The notes beneath the pieces are model-generated. The model was not told the DNA's origin. It searched no databases and saw only the letters and a list, made by a program, of their open reading frames with translations. A stretch of 64,000 bases of DNA from Dehalococcoidia bacterium (lineage in GTDB: Bacteria; Chloroflexota; Dehalococcoidia; Bin125): assembly GCA_963555985.3 (NCBI GenBank), contig OY820591.1, positions 128,001-192,000 of the forward strand, in the 5' to 3' direction. Each line of letters starts with the position of its first letter. Within the stretch, counting starts at the first letter, position 1. Positions 343 to 48,019 of this stretch are shown here, piece by piece. Position numbers and translations under genes: made by a program.

Positions 343-525
343 GCCGCGCTGTGCACTGACGTCCGAGCTGGAACGGCGAGTGATCCCCGCCTTTGGAGGC
401 CTGTGCAAAACGCCCGTTTCCGTCATTCCCGCGCAGGGAGGCCTTTGCAAAACAGCCATTTCCGTCATTCCAGGCTTGACCTGGAATCTCGTTCGGAGTT
501 CGGTCTATCCGGTCGGGCGAGATTC

Positions 526-1565
526 CCTAGTCTCACAGACGAAGTGCGACAGATGATTGAGGTGAGCCCATGGGCGCGCAGTACACGCAGTTGGACCTGG
601 CGGAGCGATGCGCGGTTGCCCGCTTACAGGCCGAGGGGCGCTCGATCCGGCAGATCGCTGCAGCTCTGGATCGCTCGCCATCGACGATTGCTCGAGAGCT
701 GAAACGCAACACGGCGCGCGACGGCTACCGTCCCGACTACGCCCAGCAACAGGCCCAGGCGCGGCGCTGGCGCGGTTCGCGGCTGGAACGCGACGATCAG
801 CTGCGCGCGCGGGTGCTGCGCGAGTTGGCCCGCGGGCTCTCGCCGCAACAGGTCGCAGGCCGGCTGGCGCGCGAGGCGGGCGCGCCGGTGATCTCGCACG
901 AGAGCATCTATCGCTTCATCTACGCCCAAGCCTCGCGGGCCAAGCCCGGCCGCGGCGGCGGTTGGCGCCAGTATCTGCCGCGGCGCAAGGCGAAACGCGG
1001 TTGGCGCGGGCGCAAAGGCGGCAGTTCGGTCGAGCGCATCCAACTGCGGCGGCCCCTGAGCGAGCGCCCGGCGGCGGCCGCCGGGCGGCTCGAAGCCGGT
1101 CACTGGGAGGCCGACCTGATGCTCTTCGGGCGCGGCGGTCCGCTCCTGCTGATGCTGCACGAGCGCTCCTCGCGGCTGCTCGTGGGCTTGCCCGTGGCGG
1201 GCAAGGCGGCCGCTCCGGTCGCGCGCCTGCTGCTCAGCCTGCTCCGCGCCTGGCCGCCCGCCCTGCGGCGCACGGTCGCGTTCGACAACGGGACCGAGTT
1301 CGCCCGCCACTACGAACTGCACCGGCTGGGCGTGGAGACCTTCTTCTGCGACCCCTACGCGCCCTGGCAGAAGGGCGGGATCGAGAATGCGATCGGACGC
1401 CTGCGCCGGGTCCTGCCGCGCCGGCTCGACCTCGCCCAACTCAGCCTCGCGCGTTTGATCGAAGTGCTGCAGTTGTACAACAACACCCCCCGCCAGTGCC
1501 TCGACTACCTCTCCCCGGCCGAAGTCTTCGGTCGGCAGTTGTTGCAGTTGCAATGTGAACCCACC
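526..1565 (+). mobile_element. IS30-family insertion sequence
   Basis: Imperfect ~25-bp IRs (526-550; 1541-1565); TTC(C) target duplication deduced from the empty site near 44200-44216. Confidence 0.85.
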
Positions 1566-1586
1566 TTCCAGCTTTCGCTGGAATGA
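570..1586 (+). CDS. IS30-family transposase
   Basis: HTH (SIRQIAAALDRSPSTIARELKRN), ISHESIY, GHWEAD, DNGTEF, PWQKGGIEN DDE motifs. Confidence 0.95.
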   Translation: MGAQYTQLDLAERCAVARLQAEGRSIRQIAAALDRSPSTIARELKRNTARDGYRPDYAQQQAQARRWRGSRLERDDQLRARVLRELARGLSPQQVAGRLAREAGAPVISHESIYRFIYAQASRAKPGRGGGWRQYLPRRKAKRGWRGRKGGSSVERIQLRRPLSERPAAAAGRLEAGHWEADLMLFGRGGPLLLMLHERSSRLLVGLPVAGKAAAPVARLLLSLLRAWPPALRRTVAFDNGTEFARHYELHRLGVETFFCDPYAPWQKGGIENAIGRLRRVLPRRLDLAQLSLARLIEVLQLYNNTPRQCLDYLSPAEVFGRQLLQLQCEPTFQLSLE

Positions 1587-1990
1587 CGAGAGCAGCGGGA
1601 ATGCCAATTTGCAAAGGCCTCCGCAGGCGGGAATCTCGAAGCAACCAAGCCCGAAGCCACCTCCACATCTGGTCGTACCGCCAAATTCACATCGCGCGAT
1701 CCGCTCCTCCGAGTCCTCAGCCGCCCGCAGTGGATTTTCGCAAACGTTTCCTCGGGCCTGTTCACACAACCACGAGCGCGGTCGGCCCGCACGCGCGCCG
1801 GTCTCGAGGCTGAGCCTCGGCGCTCCGCTCCCCGCCCTCCGCAACCGAGCCGAAACCGGGTATGCTCAGAACATATACGCGCACGAATCCAATGGGAGCT
1901 CGCGATGTTCCGTGAACGACTCGCGCCAAACCTGGACGCTGCTGGACAGGCCCGGATTCTTCGGGAAAAATCTGCCCGAATCGAGATCAA

Positions 1991-31207: not shown

Positions 31208-31262
31208 CCCCTCCACTCTAAACAGACCAACCCCCCAACAGAAAGCTCACCCCAAAAGAGCT

Positions 31263-31462
31263 CCGTCATACCCGCGCTCCGCCGCGGGTATCTCGCCGTG
31301 ACCAGCCCCCAACCCTCATCCCACCTCCCCAAAATCTCCCCCTTGAGGGGGAGATGCCCCGTAGGGGCAGAGGGGGTGAAACGCCACACCCAGCACAGAC
31401 GCCCTGCACCTCCCTCCCCGCCCCCACTTCCGTCATACCCGCGCTCCGTCGCGGGTATCTCG
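31263..31462. repeat. Repeat cluster: two GTCAT palindromes flanking a CCCCC-type palindrome
   Basis: CCGTCATACCCGCGCTCCGYCGCGGGTATCTCGCCGTGACCAGC x2; ATCTCCCCCTTGAGGGGGAGATG. Confidence 0.85.
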
Positions 31463-31581
31463 CCGTGACCAGCACCCAACCTTCCGACAACCGCAACACA
31501 CCATCGGTTTGCAACCCGAACATCAGAACATATAAACTCACCTATCCAAAACACAGGTTCCCAAGAAAGGAACACCCCACC

Positions 31582-31950
31582 ATGCCCTTCGACTACACCT
31601 ACCAGTCCAGCATGACCGGCGTCGGCCAACTCGCCCACTCCAACGAAGCCGGCCACGTCCGCATCAAAGCGCTCGCCCTCCTCATCCGCGAACTCTCCCC
31701 CTCCAACTCCAAGAGCCGCGAGATCCACCACGCGCTCGACATCCCACCACATCCCGAACCCGCGCCCAAACCCCGAGCCAACCACTCTCCCCGCCTGCCC
31801 GAAGCTCCGCTCACTCCCGAGCAGAAGAAGGACTTCCACCTCCACCCGATGTTCGAGATCTACGACGAAGTCGTCGCCTTCATGCGCGGCGAAGACGTGC
31901 CCCTGCTGGACGACGACGACAGCCTCGAAGAAGAGGAAGAGCCGCAGTAA
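31582..31950 (+). CDS. Hypothetical protein with acidic tail
   Basis: AAGGA RBS and coding-like codon usage. Confidence 0.55.
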   Translation: MPFDYTYQSSMTGVGQLAHSNEAGHVRIKALALLIRELSPSNSKSREIHHALDIPPHPEPAPKPRANHSPRLPEAPLTPEQKKDFHLHPMFEIYDEVVAFMRGEDVPLLDDDDSLEEEEEPQ

Positions 31951-32135
31951 TCCCCCGACCGCAAGCGGCAAACCCAACCTCGTTTTTTTCTCACAGCCCC
32001 CGCGAGGCCGCGAACCGCGACCGCCCAGTCCCTACCGTGCCCTGCGTTACACACGCTCCCCCCGTTCACACGACCGCCGCCTGCGTAAACCGGTATGCAA
32101 CAGCTGCGGACAAGCCGGACGCCGAGGAGACTCGC

Positions 32136-35262: not shown

Positions 35263-38200
35263 TCAGTCGCCGTGGCCGACGAGTTCGCGCACCTGCGCGA
35301 CTGCGCCCGCAAGATCCTCTACATCGCGTTCGGCGTTGGCGTGGAGGAAGAGGAAGCGGCAGGCGGACACCGGGCGGCCCAGCGACTGCTCCAGCGCCAG
35401 CGCGTAGGTTGCGCCCTGGAGTTGATAGCGCTCCAGCGCTGCGTCGACCGCCTCGCCGTCGCGCAAGGCATCGGTCTTGTAGTCAACCACCACGAGCTCG
35501 CCCTCGGCGGTCTCGTAGAGCAGGTCGATGAAGCCCTCCACCAAGACCTCACCGCCGTTACCGTCCGAGATTGGCGCGGCTACAAAGAGCTCGCGCCAGT
35601 AGCGATCCGAAGCGACGGCTTCGCGCACGCTGGCGCTGTCGAGCGCGACGCGGATCAGGCGGGCGACTTCGGCGGCGGCGCGGGGAGGCAGCCCTTCGGC
35701 GGCGCTCTGCGCATTCGCAGCAGCGAGAATCTCCGCTGGATCGGGTTGTTCGATCTGGATCGTCTGGAGCGCGGAGTGAACCGCGCGCCCGATGCTGGTG
35801 CCCGCCCGTCCTCTGCGCCAGGGCGGGAGGTCGTCGGGCGGTTCGTCCTTCTCAAGGTTGGGATCTTCGGCGCTGGCGCGCTTGGCGATGCTGGTGGCGG
35901 ACTGCACCGCGAAGCCGGCGTTGGCCTGGATCGCGGCCTGACGTTCGGCGAGCCAGCGGTCGCGGTCGTCGGCGGTCTCGGCGGGAGCAGGGGACTCCCC
36001 TCTGCCTTCGGCATCTCCCCCCGCACCGCGGGGGGGGAGAAACTGCGGTTCTCGCCCCAAGCGGCGGAAGAGGGGAGTGTCCGGATCGATTGGCAGCCGA
36101 TCCAGCTGCTCGGCGATGCGGTGTGCGTCGGACTTCTTGTCGTTGGCTCTGCGGTAGAGGCTGACCACCAGATGATCGCGAGCGCGGGTGGCGGCGACAT
36201 AGTTGAGCCGCACCCGTTCGGCCTGTTGCAGGGACTCTTCGCGCTCGTAGAGCGCAACGTATGCGGGCGTTTCGAGGCCGCCTCCGAAGTTCAACTGCGG
36301 TGCGCCGTCAGCGCTCCAGAGCAGCAGCGGACGCTCATTCCTCGGCGCCGCACTGAGACCGGCCAGCACGACCACCGGAAATTCCAGCCCCTTGGCCGCA
36401 TGGATTGTGAGGATGCGCACGGCGTCGCTATCCCGTTCGGGCACGACCGACTCGATTACGCGGGTGTCTTCGTCGGCCTGGCGCTGCGCCCATTCGAGGA
36501 ACTCGTGCAGTGTGCGTCCGCCGCGGTCGCAGAAGTCGCGGGCCTGATCGAGCAGGAAGCGCAGCCGCTGCCAACGGTCGCGCGGTCGCCGATCGACGAC
36601 AGCGAGTTCCAGCAGCCGGCGCTCGCGGATGACGTGTTCGACCAGGGCGCTGACCGACAGCCGCCACTGCGCGGCGGAGGCGTCGCGGAGCCAGCGCAGC
36701 GCATCGGCGACAGGGTGATCGTTGGCAATCCCGGCCGGAACGTCGGCGCGGTAGTCCCACTTGCCGCCTGCTTCGTGCCAGCGGAACAGCTCGGCGTCGG
36801 AGCAGGCGAAGGCGGGCGAGCGCAGCGATCCGACCAGCGCGAGCTCGTCGGTGGGATCGTCAATCGCGCGGAGGATGCCGAGCAGTCCGCGCACTTCCTC
36901 GGTGTGGTAGACGAGCGAGCGGCTCTCAAGTCGGTAGGGGATGTCTCGCTCTTCCAGTTCGGGCAGTAGTTGCGTCAAGCCGGTGCGAGTCGGGACGAGC
37001 ACGGCGATATCGGCGTAGTTCAGCGCTCGCCAGGCGCCGTCATCCTGATCGAGCACCTGCCACTCCGAGTCGCGCGCCTCGGCTATCAAAGCGGACAATG
37101 TCTCGGCCTCAGACTGGCGCACCAGCGGAGCGAGCGCTTCGAGTTCGTCGCCTACCACAGTCACGACAGGCTGCTGGCTGCCTTCCAGGGGCTCGCGGTC
37201 GGCGCGCAGGTCTTCCCAAGCGGCCTGTCCGCCGTTCTGATCGGCCTGCATCAGCGGCCCGAAGATCGCGTTGACGAACTCGGTGACGCCCGGCTGGGAG
37301 CGGAAGTTCTGGGTCAGATGCACACGCGAGTCGGCGTAGCGCACGCGCACGCGGTTGTACTGCTCGATATCGGCGCGGCGGAAGCGGTAGATCGACTGCT
37401 TCGGATCGCCGACGAAGAAGAGGCGTCCTTCCTCGCCTTGAGCAATCGCGTCTGCAATCTCGGTCTGGAGCGGATCGGTGTCCTGAAATTCGTCGATCAG
37501 CAGATAGCGGTAACGCTTGCGGACTTCGGCGGCGACATCGAGGTTTGCAGTCAGCAGATCGCGGCAGTGGACGAGCAGGTCTTGGAAGCCAAGCCGTCCA
37601 CGTCGTCGGCGTTCGTCGGCGTAGTCGAGCACGAACTGGCGAACGGCGTTGTAGATCGGTGCGATGCAGCTCAGCACCGCCTGGCGGCGGAGTTCCTCGC
37701 GGGCTTCGGCAAGCGCCGTCAACGATTCTCGAATGGCGAGGTGGGCGTCGTCGGGCCAATTTCGCTTCGCCCCCACGTTGCCCACCCGCATGGAGGTAGG
37801 CGTCGTGTGCTCTAGCAGCTTGGCTGCTCCGCCCGGATGCTGCGCTGCCTCGTCCAATTGCGTTGCAAACTCCTCCAATGCCGTCAGACGCTGATAGAGC
37901 TTGTCCGACTGATCGATGCACGCATCTCGCTGCTGAATGACCGAGCGCAGATCGGACACGAACGGGGTGAGATTGACGCTAGCTCCGGTCATCACTGACG
38001 ACTCGGACTCGGCCCGATCCCAGTCCTCATGCAGTTTGCGAGCGACGTTGCCGAGATGCGCCAGTGTGACGCCTGCGTCCAGCGCGTTGCGCAGCGGCAT
38101 GGCCAGCGCGGGGTCTTCGAGCAGCTCGTCAAGCCGGTCTCGCCAGCGTTCGGCGAACTCGATGCCCGACTCGGTGTCGTCGATGATCTCGAAGCCCGGC

Positions 38201-43951: not shown

Positions 43952-44154
43952 ATGTGTTCAGGTCCATGTTCGGTCGAAGCAGGAGCGGCGACATGGAGCC
44001 TCCCGTTGAGGCGTTTGTCATACTGATGTGCGACTAGTATAGCTGGTTTGGGCTTTGGTGTGGGTGTGTCGTGGTTGGCAGTGGTGGTTAGGACGTTCGG
44101 GGTATGGCGAGAATCCATGTCCGATGCGATGCGCTGCATGGATTCCCGCTTTCG

Positions 44155-44295
44155 GAGGCCTTTGCAAATTGGCATTCCCGCTGCTCTCGTCATTCCAGCG
44201 AAAGCTGGAATCTCGCCCGACCAGATAGACCGAACTCCGAACGAGATTCCAGGTCAAGCCTGGAATGACGGAAATGGGGGTTTCGCAAAGGCCTC
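44155..44295 (-). mobile_element. 141-bp MITE (intact copy), 6-bp TSD CTTTCG, inside a REP loop
   Basis: GATTCCCG-CTTTCG|GAGGCCTTTGCAAA...TTCGCAAAGGCCTC|CTTTCG-CGGGAATGAC. Confidence 0.85.
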
Positions 44296-44421
44296 CTTTC
44301 GCGGGAATGACGGAGGGTGGGGAAGTGGGATAGGGCTTGGGTGCGGTACTCAGCGAGTGATCCCCGCCGTCGCGGAGCCTGTCCCCGCGACGGAGCGCGG
44401 GTATGACGGAGTTCTTTGAGA

Positions 44422-46405: not shown

Positions 46406-48019
46406 TCACTCTTCCTGAACGTGACGCGCGATTGCGTCTAGCAATCCGCCGACCGTATGCGTCTGCGCGACCACGCTGACTGACCAACCCAATTCACGCG
46501 CGGCGGCAGCCGTGACCGGACCGATGCAGGCGATTGTTGCGCCTTTGATCGCGCGCTGCACTGAGTCTACGCGGGTCAGTTCATGCAGACCGCGAGCGGT
46601 GGACGGGGATGTCAAGGTGACCACATCAACGCCGTCTGCGAGCGCGTCCAGCGCTGACGGATCGGGTTGGGCGGTGACGCTGTCGTAGAGGGGGATGTCG
46701 TCGATCATTGCTCCGCGCTCGCGGAGGCCGTCGCTGAGCCGCCGGCTGCCCTGGGCGGCGCGGGCGAGCAGGATTCGGCGTCCGCTCAGGTCTTCCTGGG
46801 CGAGCTCCTCCAAGAGGGCGGCGGAGGTGTAGGTCGCGGGTATGAGATCGGCGCTGAAGCCGCGCTGCTTCAGGGCGTGGGCGGTGGCTGCGCCGATCGC
46901 CGCGATGCGGGTTGTACCGCAGGCGCGGGCGTCCAATCCGGCCTGGCGCAGGGCTGTCCAGAGACGCTCGACGCCGTTGACGCTGGTGAGGATGAGGTCG
47001 TCGAAGCGGCCGGCGGTTAAGGTTCGCACGGCCCAGCCAATGAGGGCGGGGTCGGTGTCGATCAGCTCGATCGTGGGGAGGAGGACGGGTTCGGCGCCGT
47101 GTTGGCGGAGGAGGGTGGCGAACTCGGCGGACTGTGCTTTGGGGCGGGTGATCAGGATTCGGAGGTCTTGGAGGGGAGAGACCGTATGAGGGTAGAGATC
47201 GCGTTGTTGCGGGGATGGTGATCCGTCGTGGCGCTGGTCTGCGTCTGGAGCTTGGGAGGTTCGAGATTCCCGCCTGCGCGGGAATGACGGAATAGGGGCT
47301 TGGGCAAGAGCGACCACTTGCCCGATCACGACTGTCATGGGTGGTCGAAGGTTGGCCTCGGACACGGCTTGCGGCAGATCGGCGAGTGTTGTGGTGAGGC
47401 TTTGCTGTTGTGGAGTTGAGGCTTGTTCGATTGCGGCTGCGGGGGTGTTGGGATCGAGGCCGGCGGCGATCAGACGATCTGTGATCTGGGGCAGGTTTCG
47501 CCAGCCCATCAGGATCACGATTGTGCCTCCGGTTCGGGCGAGGGCGTTCCAGTTGAGCTCGGGCGCTCCTTCGGCGGCTTCATGGCCGGTGACGACGGTG
47601 AAGGCGGAGGCGGCGCGGCGATCGGTGACGGGGATACCGGCGAGGGCGGCTGCTGCGGAGGCGCTGCTGACGCCTGGGATCACTTCGTACTCCAGGCCGG
47701 CCTCGTGGAGCGCGGTCGCCTCTTCGCCGCCGCGTCCGAAGACGAATGGATCGCCGCCCTTGAGTCGGACGACGCGCAACCCTTGGCGAGCGCGGTCGAT
47801 CAGGAGGGCGTTGATCTGGTCTTGCGAGAGGCGGGCGTCGCCGGCGCGCTTGCCCGCGTCGATTCGTTCGGCGTTGGGCGCTTCGTCCAGGAGGCTGAGG
47901 GGGATCAGGCGGTCGTGGATGATCACGTCGGCGCGTCGGATCGCTTCCAGACCGGCCAGGGTGATGAGCTTGGGATCGCCCGGTCCCGCGCCGACGAGGA
48001 TGATCGGCGGCGGTTTCAT
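46406..48019 (-). CDS. cobA: Uroporphyrinogen-III methyltransferase / synthase fusion (CobA-HemD)
   Basis: [25 protein letters not shown]; then ILITRP, TSVNGV, CIGPVT. Confidence 0.93.

Follow-up and report, generated by a model that had tools for sequence, protein, structure and literature searches.

Hairpin-forming repeats of the repetitive extragenic palindromic (REP) type are known landing pads for bacterial insertion sequences (ISs); IS1397, for instance, duplicates 3–4 bp of a loop. The sections of the survey by Tobes and Pareja (2006; PMC1525189) on which we draw list as REP-targeting elements ISPsy8, IS1397 and ISKpn1 of the IS3 family, ISRm22 of the IS4 family and ISPpu9, ISPpu10, ISPa11 and IS621 of the IS110 family, and describe for ISPsy8 a 3-bp duplication at the axis of the predicted hairpin. 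Small hairpins are also recognised by the Ssn nucleases. Ssn proteins are characterised by a single GIY-YIG domain, a length of about 94 aa and a gene bordered by the motif on either side. According to the parts of PMC11893778 used here, SsnA cleaves single-stranded DNA, a few nucleotides upstream of the hairpin rather than at its loop, and is inactive on double-stranded DNA; a domestication hypothesis is offered for the origin of the repeat expansion. Here we describe a stretch of 64,000 nucleotides (hereafter the window) from the genome of a Dehalococcoidia bacterium, in which a 1.84-kb gap between two convergent genes (303–2140) consists mostly of repeats. At its heart an IS30-family IS lies inside a MITE (miniature inverted-repeat transposable element), which in turn lies inside a hairpin of an older MITE with the same type of ends. 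This arrangement would very probably have arisen by successive insertions under two targeting rules, one followed by a clade of IS30-family elements and the other by a clade of IS5-family elements together with their MITEs.

Anatomy of the nested locus

The source genome (G000; 3.33 Mb, 65% G+C) is represented by an assembly that is 96.4% complete, with about 3.6% unassembled, and the window corresponds to positions 128001–192000 of its contig C1. Ten small contigs (C2–C11, 11–55 kb) are near-duplicate stretches of C1; they probably account for the 7.5% 'contamination' figure, and they slightly inflate repeat counts taken over the whole assembly. The region was parsed by comparing the window sequence with all genomic copies of its repeats, which resolves three elements on the plus strand. 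The outermost and oldest is a MITE of a 166-bp type (395–1753), composed of a terminal inverted repeat (TIR) module (395–421), the left arm (422–432) and loop (433–436) of a hairpin, the insert, the right arm (1627–1635), and a body with a degenerate right TIR that extends to 1753. Inserted in this hairpin is a second MITE of 143 bp (437–1622, in halves 437–525 and 1569–1622), which has IS5-type TIRs, GGAGGCCTTTGCAAA, and a core consisting of a doublet of GTCATTCCAG-type hairpins; the loop sequence GCAG stands on either side of it (433–436 and 1623–1626). The innermost element is the IS30-family IS of 1040 bp (526–1565), with TTC duplicated at 523–525 and 1566–1568 and with a transposase open reading frame (ORF) of 338 aa at 570–1586. 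The IS30 element thus uses the stem of a hairpin, and the inner MITE a 4-nt loop.

Each layer can be matched to paralogues once its insert is removed. When joined, 422–436 and 1627–1635 equal the reverse complement of an intact hairpin on the minus strand at 47265–47288 (GTCATTCCCGC, loop GCAG, GCGGGAATC) at 24 of 24 positions; no MITE terminal module adjoins that copy. Without the IS and one TTC the inner MITE measures 143 bp, of which 139 are identical to the reverse complement of an intact paralogue at 44154–44296 (minus strand), itself located in a hairpin loop and bordered by GGATTCCCGC (44140–44149) and TTTC on one side and by TTTC (44297–44300) and GCGGGAATGACGG (44301–44313) on the other. 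The pieces of the outer MITE, 395–436 and 1627–1753, add up to 169 bp that align end to end with five complete copies of 166–167 bp, with 131–136 identical positions in 170–172 columns. Identity to paralogues falls from the inside to the outside, from 99.8–100% for the IS (10 genomic copies) through 97% for the inner MITE to 77–79% for the outer one, and this age order fits the nesting. In the history suggested by these comparisons, an old IS5-type MITE would have arrived with a small G+C-rich hairpin aboard, a second MITE of the same terminal-repeat family would then have entered the 4-nt loop of that hairpin and duplicated it, and the IS30-family element would have come last, entering a hairpin stem within the second MITE.

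Much of this structure had been recognised in an initial annotation of the stretch, which described a palindrome split by a MITE and the MITE split in turn by an IS30 element at an internal palindrome; both points hold. Its bounds for the MITE (438–1621, 141 bp) shift to 437–1622, and the duplication that it saw, as a 6-bp core CGCAGG, is present but is better read as the 4-bp GCAG. The two readings differ because the hairpin's closing C..G is repeated in the element's terminal G and C; over 37 complete MITEs the 143-bp/4-bp reading is exact in 16 and the 141-bp/6-bp reading in 13. A MITE-like left end at 396, put forward as a possible fourth layer, is real, starts at 395 and is part of the same element as the REP layer, while the outermost REP, taken for a layer in its own right, turns out to be the internal hairpin of the older MITE. 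The two sites at 44154–44296 and 47265–47288, described as empty sites within the window, are paralogues rather than empty alleles.

Target site of the IS30-family element

Elements of the IS30 family are about 1–1.7 kb long, have imperfect TIRs of 20–30 bp and duplicate 2–3 bp of their target. The innermost element agrees with this description in its size, in its ends, which match at 15 of the first 26 positions, and in its 3-bp duplication. Its transposase is assigned to the family by NCBIfam NF033563 (transpos_IS30, 217.2 bits, cut-off 80) and matches Pfam HTH_38 (55.9 bits, cut-off 27); the rve domain scores 21.2 bits, below its cut-off of 32.6. One genomic copy, at C1:2308130–2309169, lies outside any hairpin and is flanked by AAG on both sides, which fixes the ends of the element at CCTAGTC...CCCACC and the duplication at 3 bp. 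The other nine share one insertion point and one orientation, within the site GATTC^CCGC-N4-GCGGGAATGAC or a sequence close to it, with flanks that are TTC/TTC in seven and TTT/TTC in two; overall, the 3-bp duplication is exact in eight of the ten copies.

The transposase ORF contains no stop codon inside the IS. At the locus described here it crosses the junction as TTC CAG CTT TCG CTG GAA TGA and ends in the GGAATGAC of the target hairpin, and in all nine hairpin copies it ends six codons past the IS, at the TGA of GGAATGAC, giving an open frame of 341 aa; the tenth, non-hairpin copy has an open frame of 411 aa. Because the TTC belongs to the left arm, a 7-bp hairpin is kept at the right junction, directly at the end of the gene. 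Related elements occupy the same hairpin site in three other genomes, for all copies examined: 3/3 in G022 (transposase 84% identical, the 341-aa frame in all four copies), 3/3 in G007 (62%), where the TGA is out of frame owing to a 6-nt spacer and open frames run to 354–494 aa, and 2/2 in G019 (about 60%). As a rule, then, this IS30 clade would integrate between GATTC and CCGC of the left arm, in a single orientation and with duplication of TTC, and each insertion would rebuild a 7-bp hairpin right after a stopless transposase gene, which would terminate at the TGA of GGAATGAC.

Target sites of the MITEs

The inner MITE belongs to a superfamily with ends GGAGGCCTTTGCAAA that comprises size families of 114, 135–136, 142–145, 165–167, 177 and 189–190 bp. 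The 143-bp form is non-coding, has 15-bp inverted ends and gives 22 matches in the genome, as is typical of a MITE. On contig C1 there are 210 superfamily ends (≤3 mismatches), of which 105 abut CCCGC + 4 nt, 11 CCTGC and 4 TCCGC. For 27 of the 37 complete MITEs, each end is separated by exactly 4 nt from one of two complementary 5-nt arms, and an exact duplication of 4 bp is found in 13 copies, one of 5 bp in three and none in 20; as a control, direct repeats at offsets of 4, 8 and 12 outside the MITE ends occur in 0, 0 and 0 of 37. These flanks, with the nine of ten IS copies in a hairpin stem, uphold the hierarchy of the initial annotation, in which elements land in the palindromes of their predecessors, against the check it had named, namely copies at unrelated sites. 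Its wording that the elements each target the other's palindromes goes too far, since the targeting is one-way and nothing here targets the IS30 element.

The hairpins and the MITEs are closely associated throughout contig C1. Of 82 intact hairpins, 53 lie directly beside an IS5-type terminal module, which comes in three variants (35, 15 and 3 cases), and about 41 further hairpins are split by IS5-type ends. Fourteen neighbouring ends are 42 bp apart, the combined length of terminal module, left arm and loop; this spacing may be the residue of a nested insertion whose right halves, being direct repeats, underwent deletion between them. Arrays repeated in tandem with a period of 42 bp occur at C1:1357126–1357344, 38032–38106, 262181–262398 and 2532771–2532846, each flanked as a whole by one duplication, for example GTTC/GTTC, and fit nested insertion followed by deletion, with slippage as the alternative. 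The second rule would be that the IS5 clade and its MITEs integrate between the arms (CCCGC...GCGGG or CCCCC...GGGGG) and duplicate the whole spacer. Because the MITEs carry such hairpins themselves, each insertion would destroy one target and add new ones, and the family would come to nest in itself.

IS5-family relatives and duplication length

A survey of 64 other genomes of the same taxonomic family shows the MITE ends in 15, mostly those of one sister genus, the reversed control giving 0–1 matches. One sister-genus genome, G072, contains 158 MITE-type ends, compared with 6 for the reversed control pattern, and three copies of an IS of about 1.24–1.31 kb whose ends, GGAGACCTTTGAAAA, match the MITE end at 13 of 15 positions and whose transposase is assigned to the IS5 family (NF033581, transpos_IS5_4, 262.8 bits, cut-off 140). 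This IS lies in hairpin loops, as in CTCCCCCC-GCAA-[IS]-GCAA-GGGGGG, and another copy is found between TTGC and TTGC inside a MITE. IS5-clade transposases occur in 19 genomes, and clade members with transposases 57–62% identical carry the other two end variants seen in the source genome. Judged by their ends, the MITEs derive from this IS5-family clade, with an intact parent in the sister-genus genome.

The lengths of the duplications bear on how such targets might be chosen. Among 49 loci in the relatives, with two to four copies read per genome, 32 are bordered by exact repeats, of 3 bp (15 loci), 4 bp (9), 5 bp (1), 6 bp (1), 7 bp (5) or 8 bp (1), and for 27 of the 32 the repeated sequence is the entire spacer that separates complementary arms. 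The IS5 group usually makes a fixed 4-bp duplication at YTAR-type sites; the exact repeats of 3–8 bp across this clade and its MITEs depart from that pattern, with a spread that the ambiguity of 1 bp at each end does not remove. These lengths would have another source if IS5-clade enzymes cut at a fixed offset and merely preferred hairpins, the range of 3–8 bp reflecting subclades active at different times together with the 1-bp ambiguity. Such a fixed stagger, a rival that concerns the mechanism only, agrees with the G022-type IS (3 bp in 4/4 copies), the G071-type IS (5 bp fits in 4/4 copies, one of them at a non-hairpin site), the G072 MITEs with a duplication of at least 4 bp (4 bp in 8/8), and two non-hairpin sites of the source genome with 5 bp. 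It is nevertheless somewhat doubtful, as lengths vary within one genome and end type (7, 7, 7, 7 and 8 bp in G066, 6 and 7 bp among the MITEs of G071, 5 and 7 bp in G060), as the source genome has 4 bp in 13 copies and yet 5 bp in a hairpin with a 5-nt spacer, and as the repeat ends exactly at the arms in those 27 of 32 cases. Recognition of the hairpin arms by the transposases themselves is our inference, and arm spacing is a more likely determinant of duplication length than a fixed stagger.

Several observations weigh against a stack of insertions governed by two rules. The duplication of the outer MITE itself is undemonstrable, its right flank being taken by a 386-bp MITE, and in the sequencing data (short contigs from two studies) junctions lacking the IS (522 joined to 1566) or lacking the inner MITE are indistinguishable from intact paralogues. 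Among the 37 complete MITEs 20 are without an exact duplication and 10 without recognisable arms, and the element ends are ambiguous by 1 bp per side, leaving the duplication lengths uncertain by up to 2 bp. The two non-hairpin sites just mentioned have the 5 bp that a fixed stagger would give, the subclades represented by G071 and G022 fit constant lengths of 5 and 3 bp, and 17 of the 49 loci in relatives have no duplication, two of them with the spacer inverted on one side. Lastly, no IS5 transposase is detectable in the assembly of the source genome (PF01609 without a match, a protein search with none at 1e-20, a best tblastn E of 0.09), despite which 13 MITE copies covering at least 141 of the 143 positions are 87–100% alike. 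Family scans of this genome for Y1_Tnp, IS110, DDE_Tnp_1 and rve gave no match, the rve scan being one that also misses the weak rve domain of the IS30 element. Having no IS5 transposase gene beside them, the MITEs of the source genome are therefore orphans, barring an IS5 copy in the unassembled part, and would have been mobilised in trans by an enzyme that has since been lost or is missing from the assembly. With these points taken into account, we put the probability of a stack of successive insertions under the two rules at about 85%.

A patchwork built by recombination among dispersed repeats, similar to the mosaic elements of Neisseria and Escherichia coli known as NIMEs and BIMEs, could in principle produce such a locus with no insertions at all, the apparent duplications being drawn from a small repertoire of loops. 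The kinds of loop are indeed few, GCAG accounting for 40 and GAAC for 25 of 89 exact-arm hairpins, many MITEs have unlike loops on their two sides (the 20 of 37 without an exact repeat), and the 42-bp arrays require deletion or slippage. Two loci in relatives, L040 (G066) and L046 (G071), point in the same direction: the right spacer is the reverse complement of the left, exactly or with one mismatch, and the arms belong to different hairpin types, so that they probably arose by recombination between copies whose hairpins were oppositely oriented. As an account of the whole locus, however, such a mosaic is very unlikely. In 27 of 37 copies the loop occurs twice, once per side and exactly as far from one end as from the other, exact repeats of 7 and 8 bp cannot be coincidences of a loop repertoire, removal of the inserts restores full-length paralogues (24/24, 139/143 and the end-to-end alignment), and identical behaviour is seen in an autonomous IS that has these ends.

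Other candidates for an autonomous partner of the MITEs were considered and rejected. The IS30 transposase is not a plausible mobiliser, as its ends are unlike those of the MITEs and its duplication is 3 rather than 4 bp. Inverted TIR pairs 200–4000 bp apart in the source genome are all explained by IS30 insertions or unrelated genes, and a terminase-like multicopy cassette has the IS5-type module on its left only, with no matching right end. The candidate long pairs L031, L034 and L190 enclose ordinary host genes. In relatives, an IS110-family gene found within MITE ends (L032, L033 and L189) belongs to an insert of about 1160 bp in an otherwise complete MITE of 177–179 bp; the source genome has 0 matches to PF01548. 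A scan for exact 15-mer ends across genome contigs gave, among the matches listed, chance single ones in unrelated phyla. The IS110-family element (NF033542, 226.9 bits) is inserted at ...CAGAG^GGGGGG in the MITEs of L032 (G066), L033 (G059) and L189 (G072), and at L191 (G072) it lies inside the autonomous IS5-family element. This element provides a second case in which an IS targets a motif present in these MITEs.

Hairpins and GIY-YIG genes

The hairpin is present in 89 exact-arm copies that match the dRS3 pattern ATTCCC-N8-GGGAAT. As single-stranded DNA the intact copy at 47265–47288 is predicted to fold into a stem of 8 bp and a loop of 4 nt (−8.9 kcal/mol, z −5.0, none of 200 shuffles being as stable), and it fits the published SRM search motif. 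The 28-nt NTS motif of Neisseria occurs at 75 sites on C1 with ≤1 mismatch, the NTS criterion given in the relevant part of PMC11893778; the degenerate SRM motif of that same part has 198 sites, and three mononucleotide-shuffled sequences have 29, 32 and 53. The genome also encodes two single-domain GIY-YIG ORFs of 96 aa each (PF01541, 60.1 and 55.6 bits, cut-off 22.6). The first, at C1:84724–85014, has on either side the doublet of hairpins that makes up the 143-bp MITE's core, and a MITE has struck the hairpin immediately downstream of the gene. The second, at C1:2090340–2090627, is flanked by ATACCCGCG/ATTGCCGCG hairpin types, and a hairpin of the GTCATTGCCGCG...CGCGGCAATC type also flanks it. 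In NCBIfam neither protein has a match above a curated cut-off, the one weak match reaching 18.3 bits against 508, and in the PDB the nearest proteins are UPF0213 GIY-YIG proteins (E 4e-6). On the strength of motif, size and gene context, the hairpin matches the NTS/SRM motif recognised by the Ssn single-strand nucleases and the two genes are putatively Ssn-like; the association of each paralogue with its own hairpin types suggests two nuclease–hairpin pairs in one genome.

The presence of these genes invites the idea that a resident GIY-YIG nuclease, rather than an IS5 transposase, opens the hairpins and spreads the MITEs, all the more as the MITEs look young though no IS5 transposase was found and as doublets of the 143-bp MITE core type flank Ssn-like genes. 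We consider this improbable. SsnA, as described in the sections of PMC11893778 cited above, cuts upstream of the hairpin and acts on single strands only, whereas TIRs with flanking duplications are the mark of DDE transposition, and the same ends and target rule are found on an IS5-family element that encodes its own transposase. A different view would treat the hairpins and doublets as REPINs moved by a REP-associated tyrosine transposase (RAYT), the MITE ends being conserved REPIN flanks. A REPIN-like layout does exist, 36 of 82 intact hairpins having behind them a conserved spacer and then another hairpin in inverted orientation. This is the least likely of the explanations considered, for PF01797 gives 0 matches in the 96.4%-complete assembly (as a control it matched in 6 of 14 genomes) and the 15-bp inverted repeats at the ends are also those of an IS5-family IS. 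To our knowledge Y1 transposases (IS200/IS605) make no flanking duplications, which also counts against a RAYT.

The position of 53 of 82 hairpins beside IS5-type MITE ends suggests hitch-hiking as one route of their expansion. A more far-reaching version of transposition by the IS5 clade can be offered only tentatively, and we would not count on it: the clade might read the arms of a hairpin or cruciform, so that the duplication equals the spacer (3–8 bp), and the MITEs might thereby multiply NTS/SRM hairpins and make pads for themselves and for the IS30 clade. If true, this would supply a mechanism for the unexplained expansion of NTS-like repeats, and a DDE transposon clade whose duplication tracks the spacing of palindrome arms would be a mechanistic oddity.

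Surroundings of the nest and other repeats

Three further features on the plus strand share the 1.84-kb gap with the nest. A separate hairpin repeat of the GTCATTGCCGCG...CGCGGCAATC type, read directly, lies outside it at 314–340. Positions 375–394 hold half of a second hairpin type (GGCGAGTGATCCCCGC) with a 4-nt spacer, CTTT, and abut the left end of the outer MITE, which probably landed in this hairpin; the remaining half of the hairpin was not found, the right flank of the outer MITE being occupied by another element. In its intact form the GGCGAGTGATCCCCGC-type hairpin holds other MITE copies, for instance at C1:2898501 with CTGC/GCAG on both sides. The occupant of the right flank is an unrelated 386-bp MITE (1755–2140; ends GGCCTGTTCACAC...GTGTGAACACGTC, flanks CTCG/CTAG) that abuts the outer MITE and has about 12 copies of 87–91% identity, with CTAG on both sides in 8 of the 11 other copies listed. 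IS5-family elements with CTAG/CTAA flanks occur in relatives (L229–L233); their ends are not obviously those of the 386-bp MITE. As an example for annotation, at least four mobile elements make up most of this 'intergenic' stretch, and a transposase gene in it terminates only because of where its IS landed.

Two other repeat families were encountered in the source genome. The first is the terminase-like cassette, with a gene for a protein similar to terminase large subunits (472 aa; phrog_2 E 5.8e-23; Terminase_3 and Terminase_6N just above cut-off) in about seven copies of 88–90% DNA identity, at C1:664411–666733 and six other loci, among them 106901–109166, 1688246–1690549, 1952630–1954869 and 2029161–2031240; a short form lies in the window at 31257–32045. 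A 120-aa ORF with no family match precedes each such gene and occurs alone in about 15–17 further copies of 620–800 bp; no other phage genes were seen beside the terminase-like copies. The second is a repeat of about 1 kb in five copies, at C1:1224422–1225408 and four other loci, including 261116–262178, 999331–1000134 and 2500307–2501287. Its protein of 268–296 aa has an N-terminal helix-turn-helix (weak Pfam HTH matches, all below cut-off) and a repeated tail rich in Pro and Glu, and several of its copies adjoin MITE arrays.

Comparison with known systems

Nesting of this kind is in itself ordinary; at this locus it takes an unusually clear, layered form. As with the REP-targeting ISs in the sections of PMC1525189 used here, all or nearly all copies lie at one position of a repeated palindrome, and insertion at the axis there likewise duplicates a few bases. 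Those sections cover IS3, IS110, IS4, IS256 and IS5; they contain no IS30 case, IS1655 scoring only 2/13 and 2/6, and for IS5 they give a loose 'type 2' association only, ISNm1106 lying near REPs and not in them. In contrast to the cases described there, an IS30-family element here uses the stem, and an IS5 clade uses the loop with a duplication that probably follows the length of the spacer. A literature search, ISfinder not being covered, found no description of IS30-family REP targeting or of duplications of spacer length.

IS30 of E. coli and IS1655 of Neisseria meningitidis, in the portion of PMC9333248 drawn on here, share with our element the transposase family, near-palindromic hot spots and a duplication of 2–3 bp. 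The present element differs in that its target is a dispersed genomic hairpin, entered off-centre in the stem and in one orientation, and in that its gene is stopless and ends in the target. A stop codon supplied by the target is also known for IS870 of Agrobacterium.

The hairpins resemble the NTS/dRS3 repeats of Neisseria with the nuclease Ssn (GIY-YIG, cd10448), as far as the parts of PMC11893778 cited above describe them, in the 75 sites of the NTS motif, the 89 dRS3 sites and the hairpin-flanked GIY-YIG genes. They occur here in a different, high-G+C lineage, together with putative Ssn-like genes, and, unlike the repeats in those parts of PMC11893778, most of them ride in IS5-type MITEs and are landing pads for two IS families. 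NIMEs and the BIMEs of E. coli (Delihas 2011; PMC3184786, in the passages used) are likewise intergenic mosaics of short palindrome-bounded units, often between convergent genes; the mosaic described here, unlike these, can be separated into discrete insertions with inverted-repeat ends and flanking duplications. The IS5-family clade, finally, resembles the IS5 group in its NF033581 match, its size of 1.2–1.3 kb, ends that begin GGA/GAG and a 4-bp duplication at many sites, and is set apart from it by targets that are hairpin spacers, with duplications of 3–8 bp.

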